From Escherichia phage EP335: 64,000 nucleotides of DNA. The notes below the pieces were generated by a model. The model was not told where the DNA came from and did no database searches. It saw nothing but the letters and a program-made list of their open reading frames with translations. Positions 15,091 to 45,360 of this stretch are shown one piece after another; within the stretch, counting starts at the first letter, position 1; the number at the start of each line of letters is the position of its first letter. The DNA lies in the sequence record MG748548. The stretch is one strand, 5' to 3'. The position numbers and the translations under genes were made by a program.

Positions 15091-15309
15091 ATGAAAATGA
15101 TGAAACAAATCAGTTATGGGTTAGCTTGTGTTGCTACCGGTTTTGCTGTGTCAGTGGCTGTTCCTGTTAACGCAGTGCATCCTCTGGTAACACACCCTGC
15201 ACCAATTGAGAAGTTAAGTGCATCTTGTAAGCAGCGTACAATTCAGAATAATCTTGTGGTTATTTGTCCAGACTCTGATTCTAGTGCTCTGAGAAACATG
15301 CTTCAGTAA
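15091..15309 (+). CDS. small secreted or membrane-anchored protein (possible lysis accessory/holin-like)
   Basis: 72 aa; N-terminal hydrophobic segment ISYGLACVATGFAVSVAVPVNA with AxA-like cleavage site; immediately upstream of lysozyme; ggag RBS. Confidence 0.45.
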   Translation: MKMMKQISYGLACVATGFAVSVAVPVNAVHPLVTHPAPIEKLSASCKQRTIQNNLVVICPDSDSSALRNMLQ

Positions 15310-15340
15310 TTTAGGGCTAACTGGGAAGGGAGGTGAAAAA

Positions 15341-15832
15341 ATGGATAATGTCGCATTGCCACCGATACAGCTGAGCTTAAGCCCAGACGGGATGGAATTC
15401 ATCATGAAGCATGAAGGTATGAGAACTCGTGCTTACCAAGATTCCGCAGGTATCTGGACGATATGTGTTGGGGCTACGCGCGATATGAATGGGTATCCAG
15501 TTAGACAGGGATTAACGTATTCTATAGAGGATTGTCTAGCTCTGCTAGATAGAGACACACAAGACTCTGTTCGTGCCACTCAGAAAAATATTAGGGTTCC
15601 TTTGTTAACCCACGAGTTTGATGCTCTCACCTCTTTCAACTTCAACGTTGGTGGTGGGGCTTTATCAACTTCTAAACTTAGGAAAGTTATTAACGGAGAT
15701 GTAAAGGGTGATGTTTATTCTGAGTTCCTCCGTTGGGATAAAATTACAGTTAAAGGTAAGAAGATTAGCAGTCCGGGATTGAAGAATCGTAGAACTGCTG
15801 AAGCTGACCTTTACACTGAAGGTAAATACTAA
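15341..15832 (+). CDS. lysozyme (glycoside hydrolase family 24, T4-lysozyme-like)
   Basis: catalytic motif HEG(x7)D(x5)WTI(C/G)VG in MKHEGMRTRAYQDSAGIWTICVG. Confidence 0.8.
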   Translation: MDNVALPPIQLSLSPDGMEFIMKHEGMRTRAYQDSAGIWTICVGATRDMNGYPVRQGLTYSIEDCLALLDRDTQDSVRATQKNIRVPLLTHEFDALTSFNFNVGGGALSTSKLRKVINGDVKGDVYSEFLRWDKITVKGKKISSPGLKNRRTAEADLYTEGKY

Positions 15833-15843
15833 AAGGAGTTGTC

Positions 15844-16647
15844 ATGGCAGTAGAAACTAATGCTAACACAATTAATGACCTCAACCCCCTGTACCCTCGT
15901 GACAGGGATTATCTTTACGAAGGGGCGGCTCAGATTCGCCTCGTTAAACAAGTATTGCAGAACACTTTTCCAAACGTAACAGAACCAGTTCAATTGGACT
16001 CAGACTCTCTCAATATTCTGGCTAGCAAAGTTACTTTTACTGGTGACTCTATGGATGTTGGTGGGTTGATGATCAAGAATGCAACTCCGGGTACAGGTGA
16101 TAGAGATGTTGTCACTAAAGGCCAGATGGAAGCTTTCATGCAGAACTGGATGGCTAACAAAGTATTCAGGATTGGTTCTTACTATATCACTGAAGAAGAT
16201 ATTAACCCCGGTGATAGTTCTTCTCTTGGTTTTGGCTCTTGGGCTAAAGTGACTGGTGTTATTATGGGTTCTGGTGTAGTAAACCCTGACGGTTCTGTTC
16301 CTAATGCTCAGCGTGTTGAATTCCAAGCAGGTGGTACAGGTGGTCGTGTGTTTAACACTATCCGTGCTGATAACCTACCTCTTGTAACTATCAATGGCTC
16401 AAGCTTCTCTGTATCTAGTAACACTCACGGTCACAACATGGTGTTTGGTCGTGGTGACGCAAGTGGTCATAACAGCTCCCCTAACTGGTATAGTCCGGGT
16501 GGTGGTTATAGTCAGAGAACTGAAAATGATACACACTCTCACACAATCTCTGGTTCTGTATCTTTTGGTCGTGATGATGTTTCTCGTCAGCCAATTAATA
16601 CTTTACCACCTTTCCGATCTGCACACATCTGGAGACGTATTAGCTAA
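15844..16647 (+). CDS. tail-associated structural protein (putative)
   Basis: ORF track 267 aa; aaggag RBS; in tail gene block. Confidence 0.45.
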   Translation: MAVETNANTINDLNPLYPRDRDYLYEGAAQIRLVKQVLQNTFPNVTEPVQLDSDSLNILASKVTFTGDSMDVGGLMIKNATPGTGDRDVVTKGQMEAFMQNWMANKVFRIGSYYITEEDINPGDSSSLGFGSWAKVTGVIMGSGVVNPDGSVPNAQRVEFQAGGTGGRVFNTIRADNLPLVTINGSSFSVSSNTHGHNMVFGRGDASGHNSSPNWYSPGGGYSQRTENDTHSHTISGSVSFGRDDVSRQPINTLPPFRSAHIWRRIS

Positions 16648-16656
16648 GGAGGAATT

Positions 16657-19600
16657 ATGGCGTTATACCCTATAAAATCACTTGGGGCTGTCGGTGTTAT
16701 CGCTGATCAGGCACCAACTGATTTAGCACCTAACGCTTTCACCAACGCTATGAACGCTCGGTTTGTTGAGCAGAGAGTTTTTAAGACGGGGGGCAATGCC
16801 CCTCTTTCTTACGTGGAAGAAGACAAAGATCTGACTCCACTCTCTTTTGTCTCCATGCCTTTCGATTATTATAGCGCAGGAAATAGCTTCCTTGTAGTAG
16901 GTACAGATAAGAAGTTATATAAACTGACAGATGAAAGCTTAACTGATATCAGTCGTAAAGTTGCTACGGTAACTAAGAAAGCTTCTGCTATCATAAAGAT
17001 TTATCCAGTGGTCTCAAGGATTGTTCCTAAAGAGAGTACTATCACAATGAACTTTAACCAGACAAAAGAGTTAGAAGTTCAGGTTTTTCCAGAGGATGCT
17101 AATAATGCTAATCTGACTTGGGAAGTAAGTAACCCTTCTTATGCCAGTATTGCAGTAAATCCTACAGATTCTAAAAAAGCCACCCTCACTACATTATCTA
17201 CAGAAGGAACACTGTCCATTACTGTTTCCATTGAAGATGAATCTGTGACAGCTCAAATCTCCGTTAACATTGTTGATGGGGATACGGGTATCTTCTTGAG
17301 TCAAGACACAATCACAATTCGAAGAGGTGGTACAACAACTCTTACTGCTATCTCAGGTAAGACTCCTATCACTTGGATTAGTAGCAATGGTGGTGCTTTG
17401 TCTGTGACACCCAATGCCAATACACTAACTGCTGTTCTCAATGCCATGGGAGAAGGAACTTTTACTGTTACAGCTGATAATGGCTCTAAGTCTGCTACCT
17501 GTACAGTTAATGTGATACCTCAGATTGATTCTATTTCTCTGAGTCAGACAGATGTTCAGATGGATAGAGGGACTCAGTATGTTCTAACTGCAACAGTCAA
17601 CCCTGCTGATGCTCCTAATAAAGCAATCACTTGGACTTCTTCCAATCCTAATATTGCTACAGTATCAGGGACAAGCACAGAGGCTACAATTACTGGACTT
17701 CTGGCTGGGTTTACAGAGATTACAGCAGTAACAGAGGAAGGTAGTCGTTCAGCTGTTTGTACTGTTCGTGTCAACCTAGCAGGTAGAATGCTAAATACCA
17801 GAAGCCTAGCGATGGCTGCTAGTGCACCTCTAGTGGAAGAGTTCAAAGAGGAAGAAGAACCAGTTGTGCAGAATGAAGAAGTTGTTTACTTCATGTCTGA
17901 CTCTATGGGAATTGATACCTCTGGCATGGCTGAAGGCAATAACTTCTTTGACTACTCTAACGTATTTGATATGGAAGGTTTTGCTCGTGCTGCGGAGAAC
18001 TCAAGAGCTGCTCCTCTGACAAATGTGACACTAGATATTGTTGAAGCTTCTCTAGATGTAGGTGAAGAAATTGTCATAACTGCTACAGCAGCTCCAGAAG
18101 GGGATTACTCCTATCAGTGGGTTGTTGACAAGAGTGGTTATGTTTCTACTACCTCAACAACTGGAAGATCTTTGAAACTTACAGCTGTTCGTAAAGGCGA
18201 GATTAAAGTTACATGTACGGCGAGTCAGATGACTCAAAGAGACTACGATGCTTTTGATGATTACCCTTGGTATCATGCAGTAATCTCTAACTGTGCAGTA
18301 GCGACAACTCACTATGAAACTCCTCAGGTTAAAGAATTCGAATCTGAATACTTTACAGACCTTCCGGGCTGGGGTGAACAAACAATTGTTGATGGTGATG
18401 GGAACCCTTCTGTTCGTAAGTTTAACTGGAAGTGCGAAAGGGTTAGAGCTTTTAACAACAGATTGTTTGCTCTGAATATGAGGGAATCTAATGCCTCTGG
18501 TGTTACCACTCACTATCCTTTACGTCTTCGCTGGTCTAACTTTGCGAACGAGAACAAGGCTCCTACTTTGTGGGATGATTATGCTTACGATCGACTGACA
18601 ACTTCTGATCTTTCAGCGAACATTGTTGGGCAGACTGAAGCTCTTGAGAATGGTTATGCAGGGTATATTGATCTGGCTGACTCTAACGGTAGTTTGATTG
18701 ATGTTCTCCCTTTGAAAGATTACTTATTTGTTTACACCGAGTTTGAAACCTACATCGGTTCTCCTACTAACAACACATACCAGCCTCTGATGTTTAAGAA
18801 GCTGTTTAACGATTCAGGTATTCTTGCTCCTGAGTGTGTGGTTGAAGTAGAGGGTGGTCACTTTGTTGTAACACAGAACGATGTGATTCTTCATAACGGT
18901 GCATCTAAGAAATCTATTGCATCTAACCGTGTCAAGAACATGCTTATTAATGAAGTGTGTTTGGTAAACCCTCTAGCTACTAGAGTTCACTTGCACCAAG
19001 ATAAGAAAGAAGTTTGGGTCATGTATGTTGGGCCGGGAGAGCCGAAAGAAAGTTTTGCTTGTACGAAGGCTGCGGTCTGGAATTACGAGTTTGATACTTG
19101 GTCTTTCCGTACTATCCCGTATGCTCAATGTATTGGTCTTGTTGATCCTCCTGTTCTCGAAAGAGGTCCAGTGTGGACTGACTTCCAAACTATCACTTGG
19201 GACGACCCTGCTATTGATAAACTGGTGTGGAGAAAGGATGCAACTAACTTCCGTCAGAGAATTACTATCGTAGGCTCTTTCTTAAGGGGTTTCTATCAAG
19301 TAGATGTTGGTGCTTTGGATTATTTCTATGACAGAGCGAATGACAAAATAATAGAGCGCCCTCTGGAAATGAGGTTAGAGAGAACAGGGATTGATTTTGA
19401 TAACGTCACTAACGAATGGAATCAAAAACACATCAACCGGTTCAGACCTCAGACTACAGGTTCTGGTACGTATATCTTTGAAGCTGGAGGTAGTCAATTC
19501 TCTAACGAGTATGGTCACAACCACACAACTAAGAGTTATACGATTGGAGTTGATAGGCACGTAGCTGTGAGACTGAACCATCCATACCTATTCTATAATG

Positions 19601-19677
19601 TTATAGATAATGATGTTAACAGTAACGCAGCCATAAATGGGCTGACAATAGAGTTTAATGTTGGCGGTCGAAGATAA
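16657..19677 (+). CDS. large structural protein with Big_2 Ig-like domains
   Basis: 1006 aa; aaggagg RBS; repeated Big_2-like segments (ITWISSNGG, ITWTSSNPNIATVSG..ATITGLLAGFTEITAVT). Confidence 0.55.
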   Translation: MALYPIKSLGAVGVIADQAPTDLAPNAFTNAMNARFVEQRVFKTGGNAPLSYVEEDKDLTPLSFVSMPFDYYSAGNSFLVVGTDKKLYKLTDESLTDISRKVATVTKKASAIIKIYPVVSRIVPKESTITMNFNQTKELEVQVFPEDANNANLTWEVSNPSYASIAVNPTDSKKATLTTLSTEGTLSITVSIEDESVTAQISVNIVDGDTGIFLSQDTITIRRGGTTTLTAISGKTPITWISSNGGALSVTPNANTLTAVLNAMGEGTFTVTADNGSKSATCTVNVIPQIDSISLSQTDVQMDRGTQYVLTATVNPADAPNKAITWTSSNPNIATVSGTSTEATITGLLAGFTEITAVTEEGSRSAVCTVRVNLAGRMLNTRSLAMAASAPLVEEFKEEEEPVVQNEEVVYFMSDSMGIDTSGMAEGNNFFDYSNVFDMEGFARAAENSRAAPLTNVTLDIVEASLDVGEEIVITATAAPEGDYSYQWVVDKSGYVSTTSTTGRSLKLTAVRKGEIKVTCTASQMTQRDYDAFDDYPWYHAVISNCAVATTHYETPQVKEFESEYFTDLPGWGEQTIVDGDGNPSVRKFNWKCERVRAFNNRLFALNMRESNASGVTTHYPLRLRWSNFANENKAPTLWDDYAYDRLTTSDLSANIVGQTEALENGYAGYIDLADSNGSLIDVLPLKDYLFVYTEFETYIGSPTNNTYQPLMFKKLFNDSGILAPECVVEVEGGHFVVTQNDVILHNGASKKSIASNRVKNMLINEVCLVNPLATRVHLHQDKKEVWVMYVGPGEPKESFACTKAAVWNYEFDTWSFRTIPYAQCIGLVDPPVLERGPVWTDFQTITWDDPAIDKLVWRKDATNFRQRITIVGSFLRGFYQVDVGALDYFYDRANDKIIERPLEMRLERTGIDFDNVTNEWNQKHINRFRPQTTGSGTYIFEAGGSQFSNEYGHNHTTKSYTIGVDRHVAVRLNHPYLFYNVIDNDVNSNAAINGLTIEFNVGGRR

Positions 19678-19682
19678 CAACT

Positions 19683-19711
19683 AAGGGGCTTCGGCCCCTT
19701 TTCTTGTTTTT
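19683..19711 (+). terminator. rho-independent terminator (UUCG tetraloop hairpin)
   Basis: aaggggc-ttcg-gcccctt followed by ttcttgttttt. Confidence 0.55.
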
Positions 19712-19728
19712 AAACTTTGGAGGTACTT

Positions 19729-20739
19729 ATGGGTGCTGGAGGTTTTCGTAAGAATACTGGACGTAACAACACCACACTTCCCTACAACGTTGGGTTTCTC
19801 AACAGGGTAGAGGATACAGAAACGTATAACACTGCTGTCTATGATGAATTACAGAAAGTCAGTACAGCGACTAACCAAATGTTCCAAGCAATCGACGAGA
19901 TTCATGATGAGATTGATGTTCGTATCAAAGCTCTTAACGCAATGAATCTCCAGTTCGATGAGCTTGAGAATCGAATTACTACAGAGATTGAAACAGCTAT
20001 TGCAGACATTCAAACTCAAATGGGCAATCTATCTACGGATGATATTTGGGATAACTCAACGAATCCTCCTACTAAATTGAACGGTACGGTAGCTGGTATT
20101 AAAACTAGCATTGAAGGTAATGATTTAAAGATTCAAACTGTTCAAGGCATTGTGAATGAGCAAGGACAAGAGATTGCTTTAGTTCAAACAGAACTTACAA
20201 CTCAAGGTCAGAAGATTGTGGATGTTGATGGAAGGGTTACAACTGTACAGAACTCTCTTTCTCAATATATGAAGCTTACCGAATATGAAGCTACTTGGGG
20301 TGTGAACTCAAGTGTTAACGGTCGGTATGCAGGAGTTAAGTTAACTAACAACGGAACGAACAGTGCTTTCCAAGTAACTGCTCAGAAGTTTATTGTCGGT
20401 GATGGTAGCTCTGGTAACACCCCTTTCGTCTTTGAGAATGGTAGGGCTAGAATGGAGTTCGCTGATATAAAGAATGTCAACATCACAACTGCCATGATTG
20501 CTAATGCTCGTATCCAGTTTGCTCAGATTGATAATGTATGGATTCAAGATGGTCAGATTGCTAACCTAACAGCTAACAAGATTACTGCTGGTAGTATGTC
20601 CGGCTCTAACTGGAGACTTACAGTAGGTGGGGATTTTGTAATGGGCGGAACAGGTGGGGCACAGCTTTGGATGAATGGAAACAGAATTGATTTCTATGAT
20701 GGGAGTGGTGCTTTGAGAATTAGAATAGGGAGTTGGTGA
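19729..20739 (+). CDS. virion structural protein (putative tail/fibre-associated)
   Basis: ATG 19729 with ggagg RBS (track start 19717 is TTG); coiled-coil N-terminus. Confidence 0.45.
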   Translation: MGAGGFRKNTGRNNTTLPYNVGFLNRVEDTETYNTAVYDELQKVSTATNQMFQAIDEIHDEIDVRIKALNAMNLQFDELENRITTEIETAIADIQTQMGNLSTDDIWDNSTNPPTKLNGTVAGIKTSIEGNDLKIQTVQGIVNEQGQEIALVQTELTTQGQKIVDVDGRVTTVQNSLSQYMKLTEYEATWGVNSSVNGRYAGVKLTNNGTNSAFQVTAQKFIVGDGSSGNTPFVFENGRARMEFADIKNVNITTAMIANARIQFAQIDNVWIQDGQIANLTANKITAGSMSGSNWRLTVGGDFVMGGTGGAQLWMNGNRIDFYDGSGALRIRIGSW

Positions 20740-20740
20740 T

Positions 20741-21772: not shown

Positions 21773-21784
21773 CAAGGAGAGATT

Positions 21785-22579
21785 ATGGATAGGATTTTAG
21801 GAGTTTCAGAACTAGACCCACTGGTTCAACAAGCTGCTAAGAAGTATGGTATTCCTGCTGCTCTTGTTCATGCGGTCATTCAGAGGGAATCTAGTGGTAA
21901 GCCCTCTGCCGCTTCAGGAACAGGGCCAGTAGGGCTAATGCAGATTAGTAAAAGTTTGGCTAAAGATTATGGTTACAAACTAGAAGACCGTCTAGACCCA
22001 GCTAAGAATATTGACATGGGTGCTAGATATATCAAGGACAACTTAAAAGCATTTAATGGTGATGTAAGAAAGGCAATGGTAGGTTATTCAGAAGGGACTG
22101 GTGGTGCTAAGCAAATGTTTGCTGGTAAGAAAGGGTTCACCCCTCAAGCACTAGACTCCATGAACAACAAACACTTCCTCCCTTTCTTCAACCCTAATGA
22201 TGCAGCAAGACAGACAGCAAACCCTGTAGGAGCTTTACAGGAGGCTCAAGTTGTAGATCAATACAATCCATCAACACTAACTCGTGAGGGTGCTGCAAAC
22301 GCTCCTACACAGGCTGAGGTGATGGCTAGTAAGACAGGCGCTCTTGGTGGGAAACCTGCCGAGTTCTACGCTGAAGAAGTACAAGGTCAAGATCAACAAA
22401 GACCTCAGAACTTTGGGAATGCTGCACTTGCTGCTGCTGCAATGTTGGCTGGTAAAGTTCCTAACTCACAGACTGTTCAAAGAGCACATGCACCTACTGG
22501 AGCTTCCTCTAATTACAGTTCTCAAACTCAAGCGGTGCTCAGACGTTTAGCAAGCATCGGTACAGACATTTACAGGTAA
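21785..22579 (+). CDS. lytic transglycosylase (SLT domain) virion protein
   Basis: SLT motif AVIQRESSGKPSAASGTGPVGLMQIS; aaggagag RBS. Confidence 0.7.
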   Translation: MDRILGVSELDPLVQQAAKKYGIPAALVHAVIQRESSGKPSAASGTGPVGLMQISKSLAKDYGYKLEDRLDPAKNIDMGARYIKDNLKAFNGDVRKAMVGYSEGTGGAKQMFAGKKGFTPQALDSMNNKHFLPFFNPNDAARQTANPVGALQEAQVVDQYNPSTLTREGAANAPTQAEVMASKTGALGGKPAEFYAEEVQGQDQQRPQNFGNAALAAAAMLAGKVPNSQTVQRAHAPTGASSNYSSQTQAVLRRLASIGTDIYR

Positions 22580-33497: not shown

Positions 33498-34139
33498 TTA
33501 AGACCCTTGGAATTCTTCCTTGTCGAAGTGCTTCTCTACCACATACTCATACAGATCTTTATACTCTGCATAACGCCGATAGAAAGTCCCGTGTGAGATG
33601 CCTAGCTCTTTCTGAATAGAATCATGAGGGATACCTAAGAAGAGCATTGAGAACATGCTTGCGAGCTTCTGTGTGTCCATTGTATCACTCAAATCTTGGA
33701 AGAAGTAGAAGATACGAGATTCCATGAAAGGGTCCCCAACTGAATCATGCTTATTAACTGCATATTCCAGAGGACCTTCTGAGTAAATGTCAGGGTTGTT
33801 AAACATATCTGCTTCTGGAATAGCATAGATACGTCGATCACCAACTGTCTGTCGATTAGAACGGATAGACCAGATGATATTCTTCACACGATAGGTCATG
33901 TGCTCAATCTCTACTTCACCTTCCAGTAGAAGCTCTTCTTGCTTGGAATAGATAAAACGCCAAACATTAAGCAACACCTCTTGAGCTACATCCTCTGCTT
34001 CATGATAGTCACGAATGTCATACATAAAGAATTTGTGAACCACTTTCCAGTTCACCTTATAGAACTCATCGAAGGTTGGGAAGTATTTGATTGGAATACC
34101 GTGAATACGATATCGAGTAGGTGTTGTTTTCTTAGCCAC
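33498..34139 (-). CDS. phage-encoded sigma factor (sigma-70/ECF-like)
   Basis: region-2-like [15 protein letters not shown] and region-4 HTH-like [16 protein letters not shown]. Confidence 0.6.
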
Positions 34140-34169: not shown

Positions 34170-34376
34170 TTATACGCTGATCAAGTAAATAGCTGTTTCT
34201 GGGTTTGGTGTGTGTTGTTGTGGTGTTCCGGGGATACGAATCCACTCATCGTTTTCTGGTTCGTAATACAACCAAGCATCTGTGAATTTGAAAGTTCTTC
34301 CAAACACTTTATTATCATGTTCCCAAATTACGTGAACATTCCTAGTATCAGGTAATACTGTTTGCGCTCTAATCAT
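34170..34376 (-). CDS. hypothetical protein
   Basis: ORF track 68 aa. Confidence 0.4.
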   Translation of the reverse strand: MIRAQTVLPDTRNVHVIWEHDNKVFGRTFKFTDAWLYYEPENDEWIRIPGTPQQHTPNPETAIYLISV

Positions 34377-34633
34377 TGGATACCTCTTTCTTTTAGAGCC
34401 TCTATTAACCCGTTGTGGTTAGCAGCACACTCTGTATATTGGTCTTGATACCACTCTAGTGTCGTTGATAGTGCAACACCTTGTGGGCCTTCTAGCATCG
34501 GTAAATCTACCCTACACTCAGCTTTTAGGTTTGCTGGTAAGGGCATTAATTGCCTGCTGTTGTCGCTCATTGAACAGCTTGACGTACTTATCACTAGCGC
34601 AAACATTATAAAAAACTGGCTTAGTCTTTTCAT
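34373..34633 (-). CDS. o-spanin candidate (Rz1-like lipoprotein), overlapping i-spanin gene in another frame
   Basis: signal peptide ending ...ALVISTSSC (Cys20), Pro-rich mature part; 5' end embedded in 3' end of upstream gene. Confidence 0.45.
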   Translation of the reverse strand: MKRLSQFFIMFALVISTSSCSMSDNSRQLMPLPANLKAECRVDLPMLEGPQGVALSTTLEWYQDQYTECAANHNGLIEALKERGIQ

Positions 34634-34868
34634 AGTGCATCTCTTTGTAAACTGTCTCAGTGTTCTTCTTCCAATCTGATAGACCGTTGAGAACTCTCAT
34701 AGCAACCTCATCAGCTGCTTTGTTTCTCTCTATCTCTAATTCTTGCTGATGTTTCTCTTTGTCCAGATTATTACTATCTGTTTGATATTCGTTAAACTTC
34801 ATACCACCAAAGAACACAAGAGCTGAAAAGACGATGAACCCTAAGTTATCACTTAACGTGTTTTGCAT
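34518..34868 (-). CDS. i-spanin candidate (Rz-like)
   Basis: ATG 34868 with ggaga RBS; N-terminal TM segment LGFIVFSALVFFGG then charged coiled-coil periplasmic domain. Confidence 0.5.
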   Translation of the reverse strand: MQNTLSDNLGFIVFSALVFFGGMKFNEYQTDSNNLDKEKHQQELEIERNKAADEVAMRVLNGLSDWKKNTETVYKEMHYEKTKPVFYNVCASDKYVKLFNERQQQAINALTSKPKS

Positions 34869-34880: not shown

Positions 34881-34903
34881 GAAAAAAGCCACCCGAAGGT
34901 GGC
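34881..34903 (-). terminator. rho-independent terminator (UUCG tetraloop) on minus strand
   Basis: minus-strand gccacc-ttcg-ggtggc followed by ttttttc, immediately downstream of gene ending 34927. Confidence 0.45.
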
Positions 34904-34926
34904 TAAACTATTACAAGGAGAGATAC

Positions 34927-35667
34927 TTAGAATGGAGATTCGTCTTCTTCAAAAGTAGACTCAGGCTCACGATCGATAGTAGGGATAGAAGCAACCGGCT
35001 CTTTCTGCTCGTTCTCAGAAGCCTTAGTGACTTCACGACCAGCGAGAGGAATGTTCTTAGCGTCATTAGCTTGGGTAAGCAGGTTACGCTGGAATGGGAA
35101 GATTACCTGATAAGCAGCTACGTTATCATCTGTTTCAGCATACGGTTCGAAGAAGACCAGAGGACTGCGAGCAGCAGCAACAGCTTCACGATACTTGGTA
35201 GGAATCGGAGTAATCTGTTTGATAGAGTTCTTAACTTCACCAGCTTTGTTGGTGTAAGAGTTGATTAGAACGTTTACAGGCTGACCTAACAGCATTTCTT
35301 TAAACCAAGCCAAATCACCTTTCAGTGCTTGGATGCTAGGGTCAACCATCTTAATTAGGTTGAGAATACCAGAGTTCTTAGCTCGTGGGTTTACATCGAA
35401 GCTCTTAAACTGACATGCAGGGCGCGGGTCAAGAGCATTGCCTTCAGAGTCCTTACCGGTTGCATCAACACCAATCAGCTCAAACGCCAAGTCCATACGG
35501 AAAGCTGGGTTCTTAGGAGTAACTGCTTTAGTCTTAGGGTCAACCCAAGGGTCACGATTGTGAACACCAAGACCAACAACACGAACGATACGAGCTTCGT
35601 ACTCACCATCAGGGATTACGTCGTAGTTGGATTTACGGGAAACGGACATAGTTGGGATAGAAGACAT
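34927..35667 (-). CDS. single-stranded DNA-binding protein (putative)
   Basis: 246 aa with acidic C-terminal tail ending EEDESPF, characteristic of SSB C-termini; located in replication block. Confidence 0.45.
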   Translation of the reverse strand: MSSIPTMSVSRKSNYDVIPDGEYEARIVRVVGLGVHNRDPWVDPKTKAVTPKNPAFRMDLAFELIGVDATGKDSEGNALDPRPACQFKSFDVNPRAKNSGILNLIKMVDPSIQALKGDLAWFKEMLLGQPVNVLINSYTNKAGEVKNSIKQITPIPTKYREAVAAARSPLVFFEPYAETDDNVAAYQVIFPFQRNLLTQANDAKNIPLAGREVTKASENEQKEPVASIPTIDREPESTFEEDESPF

Positions 35668-35721
35668 ATTTTAATTTCCTTATTTAATTTAAGATTGTTG
35701 CTCACTTTGAGCGGTTATGTA

Positions 35722-35736
35722 TAGTATACATTACAC
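35722..35736 (-). promoter_or_regulatory. promoter-like motif GTGTAATGTATAC (minus orientation)
   Basis: reverse complement of 35722-35736; in 415-bp AT-rich intergenic region upstream of minus-strand gene starting 35667. Confidence 0.3.
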
Positions 35737-35981
35737 CTATACCGATAAGGGTGCTATATAGTATAAGCAGTAGTGGTAGTAGATATTGACTACTAGTAAT
35801 GTATATATTGTATAGATGATAATTCTATTGCAGGCTTGTATATTGGGCAATTCTCAGAATCCCTTGCAAGTACCGAAGGGCAGGAGACACCTGCGAGATA
35901 AAAATAGAGAATTAAGGAATCCTTGATTTAGGTTGTAGGGACTCCTAGGGACTTTGATTCTCTATTTAAAAGAAATATTAA

Positions 35982-36089
35982 TTACTTACTACCTAAATAG
36001 TTAACTAACTTACTTAAAACCTTTTCAATAAGAATTGCTAAAAGGATAATTCCTAAGAAAGCTAATAAGAGAAAGGCATAAGTTACCAT
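35982..36089 (-). CDS. unannotated 35-aa single-TM peptide
   Basis: MVTYAFLLLAFLGIILLAILIEKVLSKLVNYLGSK; ATG 36089 overlaps stop of upstream ORF; ggaatgatgga upstream. Confidence 0.3.
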   Translation of the reverse strand: MVTYAFLLLAFLGIILLAILIEKVLSKLVNYLGSK

Positions 36090-37287: not shown

Positions 37288-37420
37288 AATATCCAGAGTT
37301 GTAGTTTAGGGCGCATTTCTCAGCCTCTTCTATGTCATCTGTGTTTAGGATATTAACCCAACCACCAACTTCATCAAAACCCTCTTCTTCTTCATTAAAC
37401 CATACGCTGTATTTCTTCAT
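37241..37420 (-). CDS. small acidic protein
   Basis: ATG 37420 (track start 37441 is TTG); D/E-rich MKKYSVWFNEEEEGFDE... Confidence 0.35.
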   Translation of the reverse strand: MKKYSVWFNEEEEGFDEVGGWVNILNTDDIEEAEKCALNYNSGYYERNWEYDEILQSDL

Positions 37421-37596
37421 CTTGATAAGACTCTTCCCCAATCCTTGATGTAACAGCGACCATCAACCCACTTGGTCTCTGATTTAAACTCTTGAGAGAT
37501 TCTTGTTTCACAGTCTTCTTTACTGTAATCACCAAGCATCTCCATCACACAAATAAACAGAGCTATACCAATGGCCCACAGAATTAATTTCTTCAT
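37417..37596 (-). CDS. unannotated small membrane protein, 59 aa
   Basis: MKKLILWAIGIALFICVMEM... N-terminal TM; ATGA overlaps at both ends (37593-37596 and 37417-37420). Confidence 0.35.
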   Translation of the reverse strand: MKKLILWAIGIALFICVMEMLGDYSKEDCETRISQEFKSETKWVDGRCYIKDWGRVLSR

Positions 37597-38768: not shown

Positions 38769-39140
38769 TTATTTCTCCAACACTGAGATACTGTACCAAT
38801 TGTGTAAGGTTTTTCTAACCCAAGCAATGCGTTTAGGGTTTTTGTGATGAGAGCCTGTGTAACGTTCTCTGTGGTATGTGTCACAACCGAAAGGGTATAC
38901 CGGGTCCTCAAACCCTTCGTGTTCAAACATATACGTCAGGTCATTAAAGTCTATATGTTTTGTGAAGAAGTAATAGCTTTTATAACAACGGTAGTTGAAA
39001 CACAAACCGTGCTCAGGACTGAACCATTTTGGGTATTCGTCTGTCTGAGAGATGTTATAATACTGGAGGAGGAAATCCTCCATCCCCCTTTCTTTGGCAA
39101 TACATCTTAGTGTTCGGTACATAATGTTACTCTGCTTCAT
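38769..39140 (-). CDS. hypothetical Cys/aromatic-rich protein
   Basis: ORF track 123 aa. Confidence 0.45.
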   Translation of the reverse strand: MKQSNIMYRTLRCIAKERGMEDFLLQYYNISQTDEYPKWFSPEHGLCFNYRCYKSYYFFTKHIDFNDLTYMFEHEGFEDPVYPFGCDTYHRERYTGSHHKNPKRIAWVRKTLHNWYSISVLEK

Positions 39141-39149
39141 TGTGAATTC

Positions 39150-40997
39150 TCAGTGTGTGTGATTCCAGTTTAATCCAATCTGACAATCAGATGCCAGAGG
39201 GCATTCCATCTTGAGATACTCACCAGCTTTCTTAACACAAAGCTCTGTAAGTTCTTTTAGTTTTTGTGCATCATTACGGTGAACAGAGAACTGCCCTTCA
39301 TCGTGCATGTCAATAACCTTCGCACAACGAACACTATCACGCTCAATCCACTTGTTAAGGAAAAGCATGGCATACTTCATAACAATCGCACCAGCACTCT
39401 GTAAGAGTGTATTCAGTGCTTTATGAACCATAACCTTACCTGTTGCGTCACGTCTCATTGTAATACGACGACCATCAACACCCAAGATATAACCTTGAGC
39501 TGCTTTCTCTGTCATACGCTCAATAAGAATTGCAATACAAGGATTCTCTGCCAAGAAACGTGTTCTCATTACTGAACCTTCTTCAGAGCCTCCACCAACA
39601 ATAGAACCAAGCTTAGCATCACCTGCTCCGTAGTTGAACGCATAGATAAACGTCTTAGCGTTGTCACGAGTAGGAAGACCAGCAAGTCTCTGGTTGTGGG
39701 AGTGGATATCACCTTCTAATAGAATGTCACGATACATAACAGCAGAAGCTAAACCACGTTCAGCTAATGCTTTCTTACCAGCGTTACCTTCTGCAATTGC
39801 TTCAGCAAGCATGTCTCTACACTCTTTAATGAGGTAGTGAGCAAGCATACGAAGTTCTAATCCAGAACCATCATAACCTAGGAAGAGTTCTCTACCAGCT
39901 GGTACATAATACTTATACAGCCCTACTGGTTTGTCTTTCTTTCCGGGTTTTCCACGTTCGTAGATAACGTTTGTATTTTTTCGTAAGTAACACCCATCAG
40001 GGATATTGTTGGTAATGATGAAAGGATAGTTATGACTATCATCTGTGGAGTAGTTAGATTGAAATAAACTCCTACACTCGTGACCAAACAGACCGCGAGA
40101 AGGAATATTAACAACAATGCGATGTTTAAAACGAAATGTCGGAGTAGCGCAGCTATTAGCTTCCGCTGAGAGTTTACCATCTGGACGTTCCTTATCAATC
40201 AGTCCATTAATCAAGCCTAGTCTGTGAGCCGCTACAACACGTCTCTTAAGCAGACTTCCCACTTTACCTAGATCACCCTCAAGACCTTCTTCAAGAGTCT
40301 CTTCGAGGTTTGTAGGAGCTGTGGGCCACTTGTTCGAAGTAGCTAATGCTCTCTTAATTTCATCAAAGGTTACAGGTTTCTTCCTGTTAGGGTTTAAACC
40401 TAAACCAAAGACATAAGCCTTCATGTAGTTGACAGTTTTGTGACGAAAGTGCTTATCCAAGAACTTCTTGATATCAGCATCAACCATCTGAGCTGTCTGT
40501 CGCTCTTTCTCATTGCCACGCATCCAAGAGTTGTACCATTCTTGATACGTTCCACACTTACGCATGGCTCGCTTAATCTCAAATGTGTTCCAAGGCTTCT
40601 TAGATGTATTAAATTCTGGAGGAAGAAAACCTTCATCCATCAGTGCTTCTTTAACTCGTGCATCCTTTGATGGGTCAAAGTCAACATACTCAACACAAGT
40701 AAAAGCTCCACCAATATCTTCTCTCTTTAACCCCACTCTGTCGCAATATAATTGAGGCCACTTCTGAAGAGCACCAGTCTTCTTAAAGGGTTTCATGTAA
40801 GTAGAACCATCAACCCTCATCTTAGGTAACAGAGGAATCAGCTCTCTGTCGATGTTAACGATAATCTCTCTGAGAAGGTGAACATACCACCGTGCATTCC
40901 TCCGATTAAAGTTGACACCACTCTTCGCTTGCTTTGAAATTATATCAGCGACAGTCATCTCCGTTAAGAACGGAAGTACATCAGGGTTCTCCATCAC
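39150..40997 (-). CDS. DNA polymerase, family A, polymerase domain only
   Basis: motif A DGSGLELRMLAHY, motif B RDNAKTFIYAFNYGAGDAKLG, motif C VIDMHDEGQF; no 3'-5' exonuclease motifs in N-terminus. Confidence 0.85.
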   Translation of the reverse strand: MMENPDVLPFLTEMTVADIISKQAKSGVNFNRRNARWYVHLLREIIVNIDRELIPLLPKMRVDGSTYMKPFKKTGALQKWPQLYCDRVGLKREDIGGAFTCVEYVDFDPSKDARVKEALMDEGFLPPEFNTSKKPWNTFEIKRAMRKCGTYQEWYNSWMRGNEKERQTAQMVDADIKKFLDKHFRHKTVNYMKAYVFGLGLNPNRKKPVTFDEIKRALATSNKWPTAPTNLEETLEEGLEGDLGKVGSLLKRRVVAAHRLGLINGLIDKERPDGKLSAEANSCATPTFRFKHRIVVNIPSRGLFGHECRSLFQSNYSTDDSHNYPFIITNNIPDGCYLRKNTNVIYERGKPGKKDKPVGLYKYYVPAGRELFLGYDGSGLELRMLAHYLIKECRDMLAEAIAEGNAGKKALAERGLASAVMYRDILLEGDIHSHNQRLAGLPTRDNAKTFIYAFNYGAGDAKLGSIVGGGSEEGSVMRTRFLAENPCIAILIERMTEKAAQGYILGVDGRRITMRRDATGKVMVHKALNTLLQSAGAIVMKYAMLFLNKWIERDSVRCAKVIDMHDEGQFSVHRNDAQKLKELTELCVKKAGEYLKMECPLASDCQIGLNWNHTH

Positions 40998-41009
40998 CCT
41001 CTCCTTTTA

Positions 41010-41387
41010 TTATCGGTATAGTAAATCTGTAAACGCTTGGTTGTCTGCTATTACGTCCAAAGCCTCATCCGTGCTAGGAACTTCAGTTTCTTCCACTTGG
41101 TACGCAACCTCACGTACACGGAAAGCTCTTGCAGGAACCCTAAAGCCAGCATGTCTCTCCATAACATCTTTCTGAACCTGTGCAAGCTTCATACCCCACA
41201 CTTCTTCATAAAGCTCTGGATGTTTATTACTAATAACTACATACTGACGATGTACGGACTTCGACTCTCTGACCTTAGCTAATAACTCATTAAACAAGTC
41301 TAACTCTTCTTCAGAGAGCGCATCTACAACGTCTTCCCACTTCTCTACACAGAAGCGGTGGGCATGTCTGATAGGAAGTGACATCAT
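41010..41387 (-). CDS. hypothetical protein
   Basis: ORF track 125 aa. Confidence 0.45.
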   Translation of the reverse strand: MMSLPIRHAHRFCVEKWEDVVDALSEEELDLFNELLAKVRESKSVHRQYVVISNKHPELYEEVWGMKLAQVQKDVMERHAGFRVPARAFRVREVAYQVEETEVPSTDEALDVIADNQAFTDLLYR

Positions 41388-41642
41388 TTACCCCTTAGGA
41401 AAAGGAAGAAGATTCTCTACTGCAACACGATAAACCTTTTCTACGTTTTTGTTTTTATAGGAGATGAACTTGCCATCAGCACCACGAAGGATTACATTAG
41501 TGCGAGCAGTCTTCGGGTTCTGGGAAATCTGACCAGCAATGATAGATGCATTAAGTGCGTTCTCAGCGTAGTTAGTAAACTTCCACTTAACAAGTTTATT
41601 GGCAATTGAATCGATAATGGTTACAGTTTTTACGATAGACAT
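41388..41642 (-). CDS. hypothetical protein
   Basis: ORF track 84 aa. Confidence 0.45.
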   Translation of the reverse strand: MSIVKTVTIIDSIANKLVKWKFTNYAENALNASIIAGQISQNPKTARTNVILRGADGKFISYKNKNVEKVYRVAVENLLPFPKG

Positions 41643-41711
41643 AATTTCTTACCTAAGAAGTTTAATTTGGTTTATATAAAAGAAAAGGCCACCCAAACGG
41701 GTAGCCTCTGA

Positions 41712-42026
41712 TTAACTAGAGCTTAAAGCTCCTTTGCGACCGCCAGCTGATTTTCCAGCGCGATCTCCACTTTTGCCGCCAGCTGAACGATTTCCGCTGA
41801 CTGTCTCAACACGTAAATTGCTTGACGCATTAGAGCCTCCTGATTTAATGGCTCGTTTGTGTCCGACATCTTTACCTTTGAGTGCAGATTTTCCAACGCG
41901 TTTTTCAACGATGCGACGTGCACGGTGGCGCTGAGCATCTCCGCTCTTACTTCCAATTCCCGTTTCACCTCTTGCGATGGCTGTACGTCTTTCTTGTGCA
42001 TAATCTCTTTTAGCCTTATCAGTCAT
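41712..42026 (-). CDS. small basic low-complexity protein (G/K/R/S-rich)
   Basis: aaggag RBS 7 nt upstream of ATG 42026 supports this frame over overlapping ORF 41723..42001. Confidence 0.5.
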   Translation of the reverse strand: MTDKAKRDYAQERRTAIARGETGIGSKSGDAQRHRARRIVEKRVGKSALKGKDVGHKRAIKSGGSNASSNLRVETVSGNRSAGGKSGDRAGKSAGGRKGALSSS

Positions 42027-42084
42027 TTACAACTCCTTAATATATCAGTGTACACTAAGGAGTATACATTATGAGAGGGTAGCT

Positions 42085-42825
42085 TTAGTTGCCATCCTTC
42101 TCCATAGCTTTAACGATTGCTTTACAGAAACCAGAACGAACAATATCATCCGAGTCACCATCAACAATATCAGCGAACTCATACAGATCGTGCTCGTCAA
42201 TGAACTCGGTAGCCCAAGTAAGACCACTCTCTCGACCTTTCATATCGTGCTGGTTAGTGTCACCCATGCAGAACAGCTGGGATGTTTCACCCAAGCGAGT
42301 CATAATAGAGAATGCTTCATCTTTGGTTGTATTCTGGAACTCATCCACAATAACAATGGCATCATTGAAAGAGCGACCACGGAGATATTCCAGAGGTACG
42401 AACTCAATATTACCGTTACCAAGCTGGCATTCATAGAAACCTTTACCATACCGCTGAGTGATTACATCAACAATAGGCATTAGGTACGGTTCGAACTTAT
42501 CACGAAGCCCACCCGGAAGTAGTCCAAGAGAGTTACCCATGCCAACAGAAGGTCGGCTAATGATAATCTTTTGAATCTTACCGCTCTTCAGTGCATCAAT
42601 GACAGTAGAGGTGATGACGAACGTCTTACCACAGCCCGCAGGAGCGTCTGTGAACACCACTTGTTTAGTCTTGATAGCATTGAGCAGCTCAGATTGAAAC
42701 TGATTCTGAGGGACCACTGGCTTCGCTAAAACAACCTCTTCATATTCACGCTTACCCTTCTTGGTGACTAAGGCTTCACGACGTAAATCTTTACGAGACT
42801 CTCTACGGGACTGTCTACGGCTCAT
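42085..42825 (-). CDS. phoH: PhoH-like ATPase
   Basis: P-loop DAPAGCGKTF, motifs YLRGRSFNDAIVIVDEFQN and GDTNQHD. Confidence 0.8.
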   Translation of the reverse strand: MSRRQSRRESRKDLRREALVTKKGKREYEEVVLAKPVVPQNQFQSELLNAIKTKQVVFTDAPAGCGKTFVITSTVIDALKSGKIQKIIISRPSVGMGNSLGLLPGGLRDKFEPYLMPIVDVITQRYGKGFYECQLGNGNIEFVPLEYLRGRSFNDAIVIVDEFQNTTKDEAFSIMTRLGETSQLFCMGDTNQHDMKGRESGLTWATEFIDEHDLYEFADIVDGDSDDIVRSGFCKAIVKAMEKDGN

Positions 42826-43007
42826 TTGCGCTCTCCTAGCTCTTCGTAATTAAATACAGAGGTTCGACAATCTTTACATGTTGTTGTATAGACCCGAACA
42901 TTAATGAACTTCTTGTTCTTCCCTTTGGTGGGTGAGCCTTTAGCAAGCTCACTAATAACCTTAGAACTCAGGTTTAGGTTTGTGCCCTCGCATTTAGAGC
43001 ACTTCAC
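42822..43007 (-). CDS. small zinc-ribbon protein
   Basis: CSKCEG...CKDC pattern, 61 aa. Confidence 0.4.
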   Translation of the reverse strand: MKCSKCEGTNLNLSSKVISELAKGSPTKGKNKKFINVRVYTTTCKDCRTSVFNYEELGERK

Positions 43008-43170
43008 TCAGGCTCACCAACAGTAACTTCCCATACAACTTGAGAGATGATATTGTTGATCTGTTTGATTTGCTCGTGAGTCAGTTGCATGCCTTTCATT
43101 TTCCGAGAGGCATTACTTCGTGCTCTTCGCTGACGGTAGAAGTTATTCTTCTTAACAGAGTGTAAGCTAC

Positions 43171-43416
43171 TCATTTCACAAGCTCCACTTCTTCAATGCT
43201 GTACCCTTCATAATCCCACTCATCTCCCCAATAACTCTCCTTACCTTCGAGAAGTGATTCAATAACTCGCTCACGGTGTTTATCTGGAATAGGAAGACTT
43301 TCTAAATCCTTGCGTTCAGGGGGTGATAGAAAAACTTTGACAGCATAGGAGTAATCAGAACTCCCTTCCATCTCTCCTGCAAGTTTTGTTAAGACGAAAC
43401 ATTTAGATGCAGTCAT
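43171..43416 (-). CDS. hypothetical protein
   Basis: ORF track 81 aa. Confidence 0.4.
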   Translation of the reverse strand: MTASKCFVLTKLAGEMEGSSDYSYAVKVFLSPPERKDLESLPIPDKHRERVIESLLEGKESYWGDEWDYEGYSIEEVELVK

Positions 43417-43634
43417 TTCACAACCTTAAACTTAAATGTTGTTGGGTGGTAGTAGTGTAACCTGTTTATTGTATGCTTAGTCTCATGATACAGGATACAA
43501 GAGTGGCACATTGAATGGTGCAAACAGGTTACTGGATTACGTTTGAAATTGGCAATAAGCTTCCGCTTGTTACAGAAGCTACATGTTTTGTGTAAGTCCA
43601 TTAACTCTCCAGAGTTTTCCTTAGAGCTGACCAA
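43413..43634 (-). CDS. small Cys/His-rich protein
   Basis: ORF track 73 aa (CSFC...CLHHSMCHSC). Confidence 0.35.
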   Translation of the reverse strand: MVSSKENSGELMDLHKTCSFCNKRKLIANFKRNPVTCLHHSMCHSCILYHETKHTINRLHYYHPTTFKFKVVK

Positions 43635-44257
43635 GAAATTGGGTAGAGTTTAGCCATCTCTTCATCTAATGACTGAGCAAACAGTCGAACTTCATACTGA
43701 GCATGGGATGATAGTCGTTGACGACACAATTCAAACCAGCCATACAAACTACCAGTCCATACCCACTCAGTAATCATCCCCTGAGGAAGAACAAAGCGAG
43801 CTTGCTCTGGTGCAACAAATTCAATTAATTTGTCATAGGCTGCCAGTGAAGCCTCATACGCATTATTGATTAGCATTAATGCTTCGGCTCGTTCTCCGTT
43901 GACAAGCTGTGTCCCTGAACCTGCATGGAGGTCCGAAGGTCTCGCAAAAATCTCTTTAGGGATGAAGACTTCAACTGCTCCATCTTTATACCGCCGGGAC
44001 ATTTCGTTCCACGAGAATCCAACCTGATGTTTTTGTAGTTGACGAGCTATTGCAATTGGAGCTTTACATCGAAAAGATACTTGAGGGTGTCTGAACGGAG
44101 TACAGTGTTTCTCTCTGGCAAGAAAGTTGATTAATCGAGTATCACGATCATTCAAATCACCCTCTCGCACAACACCGAAAGAAACTCTTGCAGCATTAAC
44201 AACTGTTTTATCACTACCCATAGCTTCAATCAATGTTGCCTTCAATTGTTCATTCAT
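43601..44257 (-). CDS. thyX: flavin-dependent thymidylate synthase ThyX-like
   Basis: ThyX-type signature region ARQLQKHQVGFSWNEMSRRY (SxxxxSxRY present; canonical RHR replaced by KHQ) and C-terminal ARFVLPQG...GWFELCRQRL..HAQYEVR. Confidence 0.65.
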   Translation of the reverse strand: MNEQLKATLIEAMGSDKTVVNAARVSFGVVREGDLNDRDTRLINFLAREKHCTPFRHPQVSFRCKAPIAIARQLQKHQVGFSWNEMSRRYKDGAVEVFIPKEIFARPSDLHAGSGTQLVNGERAEALMLINNAYEASLAAYDKLIEFVAPEQARFVLPQGMITEWVWTGSLYGWFELCRQRLSSHAQYEVRLFAQSLDEEMAKLYPISWSALRKTLES

Positions 44258-44732
44258 ACTTCAACTTCTCCTTGTTATAAGCAATCTCTGCTTCCTCTGG
44301 AGTGTGGAAAGTTCCCAAATGTTTAGTCTTTCCGCCAACTCCGATGATAGCTCTGAATTTTGTACCACTCGCCGTCTCTCTGATATAGACACCCATTGGG
44401 AGCTTTCCAGCTTTTCCGGCTCTGTTATATTGTTTCCTGTTATGACAGTTTGTAGATGGGTCAACATCTCTTAGGTTTTTAAGAGAGTCATCCAGTTTAA
44501 TCTGGTTGATATGATCAATCTCAAACTCAGGCATCTTTCCATAAGAGAAAAACCAAGCTAAACGACAAGCTCTGTAAGATTTTCCTTCGTAATAAATATA
44601 CCTGTAACCTAGTGTAGAGATACACCCAGCAATATTCCCAGCCACCCGTCTACCTTTGGTATTCTTCCACCGAAAGATTCCAGTTTCAGGGTCATAAGAC
44701 AGGTCTTCTTTTATCTTGTCAGTTAATATCAA
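44250..44732 (-). CDS. HNH homing endonuclease with AP2-type DNA-binding domain
   Basis: HNH motif EIDHINQIKLDDSLKNLR...NCHN and AP2-like GVYIRETASGTKFRAIIGVGGKTKHLGTFHTPEEAEIAY. Confidence 0.7.
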   Translation of the reverse strand: MILTDKIKEDLSYDPETGIFRWKNTKGRRVAGNIAGCISTLGYRYIYYEGKSYRACRLAWFFSYGKMPEFEIDHINQIKLDDSLKNLRDVDPSTNCHNRKQYNRAGKAGKLPMGVYIRETASGTKFRAIIGVGGKTKHLGTFHTPEEAEIAYNKEKLKYE

Positions 44733-44994
44733 AAGCTGTTACCAAGAAAGATTTCAGGTTTGCTTCAGTCTGCATACCAGATAAGCTATAATGTGCACCG
44801 CTGTTACGGTTAGGTACGATGAAAGCAGGAATACTTCGTACACCGTATTCGATAGCTCGATCACGACCATTGCCTTCGAGGATGTTAACCTCTTCAACTT
44901 CTAGGTTAAGCTCTTCAGCTAATTTGTTGAGGGTAGGGGCCATTGCTTTGCAAGGAGCACACTGATTACTATAAAACTTAATAACTTTATTCAT
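44719..44994 (-). CDS. thioredoxin-like protein
   Basis: CxxC active site in FYSNQCAPCKAMAPTLNKLAEE. Confidence 0.6.
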   Translation of the reverse strand: MNKVIKFYSNQCAPCKAMAPTLNKLAEELNLEVEEVNILEGNGRDRAIEYGVRSIPAFIVPNRNSGAHYSLSGMQTEANLKSFLVTAFDIN

Positions 44995-45167
44995 TCACTC
45001 TTCCCATTTACAAACAGCTCAAGATGTCGCTTGGTAGTGGGGACTACGATATAGTCCTTGTAGCCATGAGACTTAGCAAGCTCTTCTGCTATCTTTTTGG
45101 TAGCACCTAATGCTACTACACATCGGCACACGATGATTGTGTGCGCTTTGTATTCATCTTTGTTCAT
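44991..45167 (-). CDS. unannotated small ORF, 58 aa
   Basis: translated by eye (MNKDEYKAHTIIVCRCVVALGATKK...); stop TGA overlaps ATG of thioredoxin gene (ATGA). Confidence 0.35.
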   Translation of the reverse strand: MNKDEYKAHTIIVCRCVVALGATKKIAEELAKSHGYKDYIVVPTTKRHLELFVNGKSE

Positions 45168-45174
45168 AAAAACC

Positions 45175-45360
45175 TTAAGCAGTGATCAGGTGGAGGATAA
45201 ACGGGATGACTACAGAGATGATAACCCAAGCAACAGATGCGATTTGAATTTCAGCTTTCTTGTCAGGAGTTTCTTCAATAAGTTTCTTGCTACCATAATA
45301 AACACCTCCGCCAATGAGAAGTGCCCAAATACTCCAAATGATTGCTGATAACATATTCAA
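45175..45360 (-). CDS. small membrane protein with two TM segments (holin-like candidate)
   Basis: 61 aa; hydrophobic segments AIIWSIWALLIGGGVYY and VAWVIISVVIPFILHLI. Confidence 0.45.
   Translation of the reverse strand: MNMLSAIIWSIWALLIGGGVYYGSKKLIEETPDKKAEIQIASVAWVIISVVIPFILHLITA

Follow-up and report, generated by a model that had tools for sequence, protein, structure and literature searches.

Dispersed lysis genes of Escherichia phage EP335: a lysozyme gene with an adjacent candidate holin gene in the late cluster, and a distant, overlapped spanin gene pair

In phage lambda the lysis genes (S-R-Rz/Rz1) form a single late cassette, in which Rz1 is embedded. The holin, endolysin and spanin genes of phage T4 are scattered (Kongari 2018), and a split layout is also in print for one Kuravirus, with holin and endolysin genes at 2.2-2.9 kb and the gene for the outer-membrane spanin (o-spanin) on the complement strand at 21.8 kb. 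The lysis genes described here are those of Escherichia phage EP335 (sequence record MG748548), of which a stretch of 64,000 nucleotides was analysed (hereafter, the window), which covers roughly the initial 64 kb of the genome (about 76 kb in all). They comprise a gene for a 72-residue membrane-targeted protein followed by a lysozyme gene in the late structural block, and a pair of spanin genes about 19 kb away on the other strand. This dispersal had been proposed in an earlier reading made from the letters of the window (the sequence-only reading) and is borne out; every open reading frame (ORF) named there is present where it had been placed.

The window matches 97 phage records (megablast, both ends of the finding), all of them Escherichia or Shigella phages, with Escherichia phage KBNP1711 (about 97%) and Bas89 (about 96%) as best matches. 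KBNP1711 is classified in Gordonclarkvirinae, Nieuwekanaalvirus, and the window belongs to a Gordonclarkvirinae podophage. Both lysis loci are present, identically split, in 97 of the 97 records, and several public records carry the labels holin, endolysin and Rz-like spanin for them. The dispersal is real and already known for Gordonclarkvirinae, since the layout is identical in phiEco32, SU10, KBNP1711 and other records, and has been described in print. With these relatives the window shares the genes (phi32_16/17 and phi32_38/39), their order and strands, the hairpins and the promoter motifs, and the 72-residue protein is 68-98% identical across phage records. The differences are local mosaicism only: a divergent locus for a protein with two transmembrane segments, a 68-residue ORF in place of a macro-domain gene beside the o-spanin gene, and an uninterrupted DNA polymerase gene. 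For the approximately 12 kb of KBNP1711 beyond the window, only small leftward early genes are annotated, and no lysis enzyme, endolysin or cassette; a canonical cassette elsewhere in the genome was what the sequence-only reading had said would speak against dispersal.

As in T4 (t, e, pseT.3/pseT.2, rI), the lysis genes are scattered and do not form one cassette; no sequence relationship to the T4 lysis genes was detected, and the candidate holin and endolysin genes of the window, unlike those of T4, are adjacent. Lambda and the window have in common three functional steps, a soluble holin-dependent endolysin and a two-component spanin. They differ in that the window has two modules in two temporal classes, with overlapped spanin genes, and in that its candidate holin has one hydrophobic segment and that of lambda three. 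With its parallel in T4 and its documentation for Gordonclarkvirinae the layout is ordinary. The nature of the 72-residue protein is touched on in one paper (PMC13417854, 2026).

The lysis system of the window is probably the bipartite one that is standard in Gordonclarkvirinae (phiEco32/SU10/KBNP1711-type), represented by the following genes:

15091..15309, plus strand: 72-residue protein annotated 'holin', phi32_16 homologue (phrog_11161)
15341..15832, plus strand: soluble muramidase of glycoside hydrolase family 24 (GH24; PF00959), endolysin, between tail genes
34518..34868, minus strand: inner-membrane spanin (i-spanin), 116 residues, with an N-terminal transmembrane domain (residues 9-23), a helical, charged part in the periplasm, and the motif YEKTKPxFYNVC with Cys90
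34373..34633, minus strand: o-spanin, 86 residues, with the lipobox T-S-S-C20, Ser at +2, and periplasmic Cys40 and Cys69

The first two genes would form a fixed late unit between the long-tail-fibre and the nozzle/short-fibre genes of the rightward cluster, behind a UUCG hairpin and transcribed by the gp36 holoenzyme from a P13-type promoter. The spanin genes, related to those of JH2 and FelixO1, would be a middle module, 19 kb off in the leftward cluster, in the order P40-type promoter, gene-40 homologue, terminator-like hairpin, spanin genes and sigma gene. A third muralytic enzyme, an SLT transglycosylase packaged as an ejection protein, would act at entry only. Spanins are harmless until the peptidoglycan is cut. 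In the proposed course of lysis, they would accumulate from mid-infection and span the periplasm as long as the peptidoglycan is intact; the endolysin would accumulate late, folded in the cytoplasm, and would need a membrane lesion, as it has no export signal. The likeliest source of the lesion would be the 72-residue protein, oligomerising via a conserved small-residue face of its helix; this hole formation is what we infer. The peptidoglycan would then be cut, and the spanins would disrupt the outer membrane. Gene identities, positions, motifs, hairpins, conservation and linkage were taken from the sequence for this proposal, and temporal classes and virion content from relatives.

The lysozyme (163 residues) matches PF00959 with E=4.5e-32 and 111.4 bits (cut-off, 22.3), and the nearest solved structures are phage endolysins (PDB 8app and 7m5i; E=1e-27 to 1e-29). 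The catalytic triad of GH24 enzymes is defined as Glu-x8-Asp/Cys-x5-Thr; it is represented by E25-x8-D34-x5-T40, and all three residues are invariant in a four-sequence alignment. The N-terminus, MDNVALPPIQLSLSPDG, is polar and kept in relatives, and no signal-anchor-release (SAR) or signal segment was found, the maximum 19-residue Kyte-Doolittle hydropathy within the first 30 residues being 0.83. The lysozyme is therefore predicted to act as a cytoplasmic endolysin dependent on a lesion in the membrane. A Kuravirus enzyme was termed a SAR endolysin (PMC13417854), a label that misfits the lysozyme of the window and its relatives because of the polar N-terminus without a hydrophobic segment.

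The i-spanin matches phrog_1152 ('Rz-like spanin', E=1.4e-37), and its transmembrane domain (19-residue hydropathy of 1.55) is followed by a segment rich in K, E and Q. Among the ORFs on the window's coding strands, that of the o-spanin alone has a lipoprotein signal with a lipobox: T17-S18-S19-C20 fits the pattern [ILMFTV][^REKD][GAS]C, for which a residue other than Asp was demanded at +2. The two genes overlap by 116 nt in different frames and the o-spanin gene continues 145 nt beyond the end of the i-spanin gene; hence, the layout is overlapped and not embedded, as the sequence-only reading had described it. The spanin assignment itself holds. Homologues of both components (30-38% identical) occur in about 420-440 phage records, and among those listed several pairs are annotated as i-/o-spanin and equally overlapped, in Felixounavirus, Salmonella phage Sergei and Erwinia phage phiEa21-4. 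Cys90 of the i-spanin and Cys69 of the o-spanin are kept in the FelixO1-type homologue; with Cys40 of the o-spanin, they would be at hand for intermolecular disulfides. The i-spanins of the window and phiEco32 share 93% identity. In the spanin census, KBNP1711 and phiEco32 are members of the JH2 i-spanin family, and the o-spanin is listed in the NJ01 o-spanin family (Kongari 2018). The JH2/FelixO1-type spanins (Felixounavirus, Sergei and related siphophages, phiEa21-4) share with the window the motif YEKTKPxFYNVC, identities of 30-40% (i-spanin) and 30-38% (o-spanin), and the overlapped layout, but their carrier phages are of other morphotypes; the lipobox is T-S-S-C in the window vs M-S-A-C in phiEco32. 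The o-spanin stop codon overlaps the start of the next gene (ATGA), so that a 68-residue ORF (34170-34376, minus strand) is translationally coupled to it; the slot between the spanin genes and the sigma gene is variable, since phiEco32 carries a macro-domain (Appr-1-p processing) gene there.

Promoters recognised with the phiEco32 sigma factor gp36 have a single element, tAATGTAtA, and six have been mapped, upstream of genes 6, 13, 26, 40, 58 and 68. The following elements and genes of the window accompany the two lysis modules:

9188..9196, plus strand: P13-type late promoter, exact TAATGTATA, matching P13/P11, with the gene order as in phiEco32
15003..15018, plus strand: GC-rich UUCG hairpin directly after the tail-fibre stop codon (-13.9 kcal/mol, z=-2.8), followed by UUUAGUAGU, a weak U-run
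15040..15059, plus strand: conserved non-coding block AAGTAATGAA..TA..TATAT between this hairpin and the ribosome-binding site of the 72-residue protein gene, invariant in divergent relatives
35725..35733, minus strand: P40-type middle promoter, exact TAATGTATA, 58 nt upstream of the gene-40 homologue
34927..35667, minus strand: 246-residue phi32_40 homologue, first gene of the P40 unit, directly upstream of the spanin genes
34887..34904, minus strand: terminator-like UUCG hairpin, 19 nt before the i-spanin ATG (-14.1 kcal/mol, z=-3.1), followed by UUUUUUCG
33498..34139, minus strand: phage sigma factor gene, gp36 homologue, downstream of the spanin genes in the same leftward cluster

The P13-type promoter (position reference for P13/P11, Supplementary Table S3 of PMC8948821) heads a unit of tail-fibre genes followed by the genes for the 72-residue protein and the lysozyme. 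In phiEco32 experiments, the rightward cluster was late and the leftward polymerase/sigma cluster was of the middle class. On the basis of the motif positions and of these temporal classes, as transferred from phiEco32, the 72-residue protein and lysozyme genes are assigned to the late P13 unit, and the spanin genes, which lie after the gene-40 homologue and ahead of the sigma gene, to the middle P40 unit. The gene-40 homologue has no Pfam match, and the gp36 homologue matches Pfam Sigma70_r2 only below threshold.

The hairpin at 15003-15018 is kept in phiEco32, Bas89 and the divergent loci L007 and L008, and is probably a partial terminator or an RNA-stability element ahead of the lysis pair. 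The hairpin at 34887-34904 resembles an intrinsic terminator, and P40 transcripts of the spanin and sigma genes would need read-through. Since an alternative GTG start (34892) lies inside the stem of this hairpin, ATG 34868 is favoured as the start of the i-spanin gene. Both lysis modules would thus be expressed by read-through, at a level reduced in comparison with the abundant upstream genes. The block at 15040-15059 reads GAATGTACA in L007 and L008, near the tAATGTAtA consensus, and may be a weak or auxiliary gp36-type promoter; a dedicated consensus promoter before the 72-residue protein gene was rejected, as there is a conserved partial match only. GC-rich UUCG hairpins occur at gene boundaries in both clusters (9136-9155, 12776-12791, 15003-15018 and 19683-19700 on the plus strand; 38027-38004 and 34904-34887 on the minus strand); folding of five of them gave -12 to -14 kcal/mol, and hairpins on the plus strand sometimes directly precede a phage-sigma promoter (hairpin at 9136, motif at 9188).

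The 72-residue protein consists of MKMMKQ, a 20-residue hydrophobic helix, a P-V-x-A site and, beyond a linker that varies, a conserved core of 30 residues (Cys46...Cys59). The sequence-only reading was correct in that it has one N-terminal hydrophobic segment (residues 7-26; maximum 19-residue hydropathy of 1.91), and in that a holin is not obvious in this genome. It did not treat the protein as the prime holin candidate, though no other late-cluster gene encodes a membrane-targeted product, and its link to the lysozyme is universal. The protein is found in 97 of the 97 records. Its gene, separated from the lysozyme gene by a 31-nt gap in the window, lies 9-33 nt upstream of a PF00959 gene in the loci examined, distant metagenomic relatives with other tail fibres included, and the adjacency is kept in loci L006-L010 and in the annotated relatives checked. 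Conservation was read across 27 sequences, down to 39% identity. Y9, G10, C13 and G17 are invariant in these and S21 nearly so, giving the face Y-G-x2-C-x3-G, and conservation over residues 6-24 is alpha-periodic (permutation p=0.013). This helical periodicity together with the invariant residues points to a face for helix packing, for which a disposable signal peptide would have no use.

When the general holin criteria of Young and co-workers are applied, the gene has the adjacency to the endolysin gene and, by motif position and phiEco32 temporal classes, the late expression of a holin gene. We tentatively regard the protein as the holin, namely as a type-II, single-pass mini-holin with N-in/C-out topology; in that case it would be among the smallest single-pass holins in the known set. 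The T4 holin T is also single-pass N-in/C-out, and T4 RI is a small exported antiholin. The 72-residue protein is a third as large as T, with next to no cytoplasmic N-terminus; its likeness to RI is architectural only (short N-terminus, SAR-like segment, small Cys-containing periplasmic domain), and membership in the RI-type antiholins by sequence was rejected, with no Pfam match at E up to 1. Also rejected were a lambda-like dual start in MKMMKQ, as positions 3 and 4 are not conserved Met across the family, and a lipoprotein reading of Y-G-L-A-C13, as -1 is Leu, Val or Ile in many members and no lipobox results.

Several observations weigh against a holin at this position. No holin family match was obtained in Pfam and NCBIfam with 18 family members scanned; the sole profile match is phrog_11161, a lineage-specific cluster whose label 'holin' probably derives from position alone. 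The 44 residues past the helix contain four K/R and three D/E, and are predicted to be periplasmic by the positive-inside rule; the classic holin tail is therefore absent, the C-terminal part being weakly charged and predicted outside the cytoplasm. At the P-V-x-A end of the hydrophobic segment, across the 27 sequences, Ala at -1 is invariant, -3 is Val or Thr, and -2 and +1 are free, a pattern that reads as the signature of a selected signal-peptidase I site. DeepTMHMM and SignalP predicted a signal peptide and no transmembrane domain for a homologue (PMC13417854). The best conserved part is not the helix but the predicted periplasmic, Cys-flanked core, nearly invariant after the variable linker as KLSxxC-KQRTIQNNLVVI-CP, and modelled by AlphaFold as a beta-hairpin closed by the two Cys, at low confidence, with a predicted local distance difference test (pLDDT) score of 54. 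The temporal classes used are those of phiEco32 (later papers, same group) and not the window phage's own, and no lysis-gene experiment with any phage of the group was found in the searchable literature.

These two sets of conserved features, cleavage site and working helix, appear to point different ways. A possible but rather doubtful alternative is that the 72-residue protein is exported, by signal-peptidase cleavage or SAR-type release, as a lysis accessory, and that another membrane protein forms the hole, most plausibly the core protein with two transmembrane segments encoded at 45175-45354. The disulfide-stapled 44-residue domain could then serve as an antiholin or lysis-timing sensor comparable to T4 RI, or as some other factor of the periplasm that is linked with the lysozyme. 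The pattern at the cleavage site and the signal peptide alone in the published prediction favour export, as do the conserved core with its two invariant Cys flanking a predicted beta-hairpin and the composition of the hydrophobic segment, half of which is Gly, Ala, Ser, Thr or Cys, as in SAR domains. Against export stands the invariant face Y-G-x2-C-x3-G, unexpected for a disposable signal peptide, and against the RI-like role the lack of similarity to any RI family and of an evident partner with a periplasmic domain.

The other membrane proteins that come into question as holins are the following:

45175..45354, minus strand: protein with two transmembrane segments, 59 residues, phi32_66 homologue, its gene flanked by the Dps-like and thioredoxin-like genes and present in 96 of 97 records
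35982..36089, minus strand: 35-residue peptide with one transmembrane segment, phi32_41 homologue, encoded by the final gene ahead of the P40 intergenic region; its DNA is present in 76 of 97 records
37417..37596, minus strand: 59-residue protein with N-terminal anchor and Cys-containing tail, in 67 of 97 records, not core
61330-61485, minus strand: 51-residue protein, in 73 of 97 records, not core

Besides the 72-residue protein, the first is the one core membrane protein of the window; its transmembrane segments are conserved, and it is the alternative holin candidate. The sequence-only reading had listed it as a possible holin, with 61 residues; a start at ATG 45354, behind an AGGA ribosome-binding site, and 59 residues are likelier. 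The protein amounts to a bare hairpin whose loop is charged and 16 residues long, and its gene belongs to the middle P68 unit. A holin function is improbable for this protein: it has neither a hydrophilic N- or C-terminal tail nor a holin family match, lies in the middle cluster, and is unusually variable, its mosaic locus being 93% identical to Bas89 and 49% to KBNP1711 in a genome otherwise about 97% identical to the latter. The 35- and 59-residue peptides, which had also been proposed as holins and called unannotated, are both annotated as hypothetical proteins in Bas89 and phiEco32; together with the 51-residue protein they were rejected as sole holin, since they are not core. An embedded holin was considered in a 93-residue hydrophobic ORF with a charged C-terminus (16394-16675, +1 frame) in the tail gene just downstream of the lysozyme gene; this ORF is judged spurious, since its phiEco32 counterpart is truncated and those in Bas89 and L007 are altered.

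The 72-residue protein family is lineage-restricted: a search of 5.8 billion proteins yielded 24 clusters, and a profile search among 1.84 billion representatives gave two further distant members, both in SU10-like contigs, and wider homologues were thus found in neither search. A fold search with the AlphaFold model was dropped, its pLDDT being too low. There is some chance, though we think it unlikely, that the family is an undescribed lysis protein, being either a minimal holin made of a 20-residue helix with the Y-G-x2-C-x3-G face, or an exported peptide. The exported form could be a beta-hairpin peptide, stapled by a disulfide, that acts from the periplasm to control or assist lysis; if so, the true holin would still have to be identified for a whole phage subfamily that is in wide use in therapy studies. 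Kuravirus-like phages have been isolated in numbers and proposed for therapy and food biocontrol, and their annotations copy the label "holin", which is backed by neither experiment nor family model. Settling the role of the 72-residue protein (holin, exported regulator or neither) would correct these annotations and show engineers which gene sets the timing of lysis. Three small proteins from different temporal clusters (15091-15309, plus strand; 37417-37596 and 61330-61485, minus strand) have one architecture, an N-terminal hydrophobic segment followed by a 30-45-residue tail with two cysteines, and may represent a set of small disulfide-bonded peptides that the phage exports to the periplasm.

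For the lysozyme, a role in the virion had been left open by the sequence-only reading, which also took it as the sole muralytic candidate. No other endolysin was found, but a second muralytic domain had been overlooked:

21785..22579, plus strand: SLT lytic transglycosylase (PF01464, E=4.6e-26), virion ejection protein, homologue of SU10 gp20

By analogy with SU10, this protein is taken to be the muralytic enzyme for entry and not an endolysin. Mass spectrometry of SU10 in a crude polyethylene glycol preparation detected the products of coding sequences (CDS) 12, 13, 16, 17 and 18, i.e. the flanking structural proteins, with 40-75% coverage, as well as gp20 and many non-structural proteins, yet neither CDS14 ('holin') nor CDS15 (lysozyme). 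In the cryo-electron microscopy study of SU10, degradation of peptidoglycan at entry is assigned to the ejection protein gp20, and the lysozyme is nowhere mentioned. That the GH24 lysozyme is a virion-associated entry enzyme and not the endolysin, which would explain its gene's place between tail-fibre and nozzle genes, is therefore very unlikely, the more so as the window and the KBNP1711 annotation hold no other endolysin candidate.

It is hardly credible that the pair at 34373-34868 is a superinfection-exclusion or other mid-infection envelope system, as its place in the middle cluster, distant from the endolysin gene, and its lack of Pfam and NCBIfam matches might suggest, given the phrog_1152 match, the co-occurrence of both partners in the same overlap in about 420-440 genomes (several annotated as spanins), a conserved periplasmic Cys in each partner, membership in the curated spanin census, and no other lipobox ORF on the coding strands of the window.

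Three further elements lie at published promoter positions:

26316, plus strand: P26-type promoter, exact TAATGTATA
42071, minus strand: P58-type promoter, exact TAATGTATA
46352, minus strand: P68-type promoter, aAATGTATA

The sequence AATGTATA occurs seven times in the window vs 2.3 times expected by chance. For the P6-type promoter (TAATGTAgA), reported for phiEco32 and predicted for KBNP1711, no exact AATGTAGA match is present anywhere in the window. An additional AAATGTATA, the same as the P68-type element and outside the six published promoters, is located at 48818-48826 (minus strand). The P40 intergenic region (35668-35981) contains, within about 100 bp and on both strands, four copies or near-copies of the gp36 element, at 35715 (plus), 35725-35733 (minus), 35797-35805 (plus) and 35806 (plus), including one exact antisense TAATGTATA; this cluster may function as a divergent promoter or as a regulatory site.

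Outside the window, KBNP1711 (NC_023593) encodes two further envelope-type early proteins (66062-66361 and 68907-69203), a 99-residue lipoprotein with an L-T-G-C lipobox and a 98-residue transmembrane and coiled-coil protein mislabelled 'DNA helicase'; their architectures are spanin-like, their genes lie about 2.5 kb apart, and they may have exclusion functions. The DNA polymerase of the window (39150-40997, minus strand) is encoded by a single ORF of 615 residues, which in KBNP1711 and Bas89 is split by an inserted endonuclease gene.

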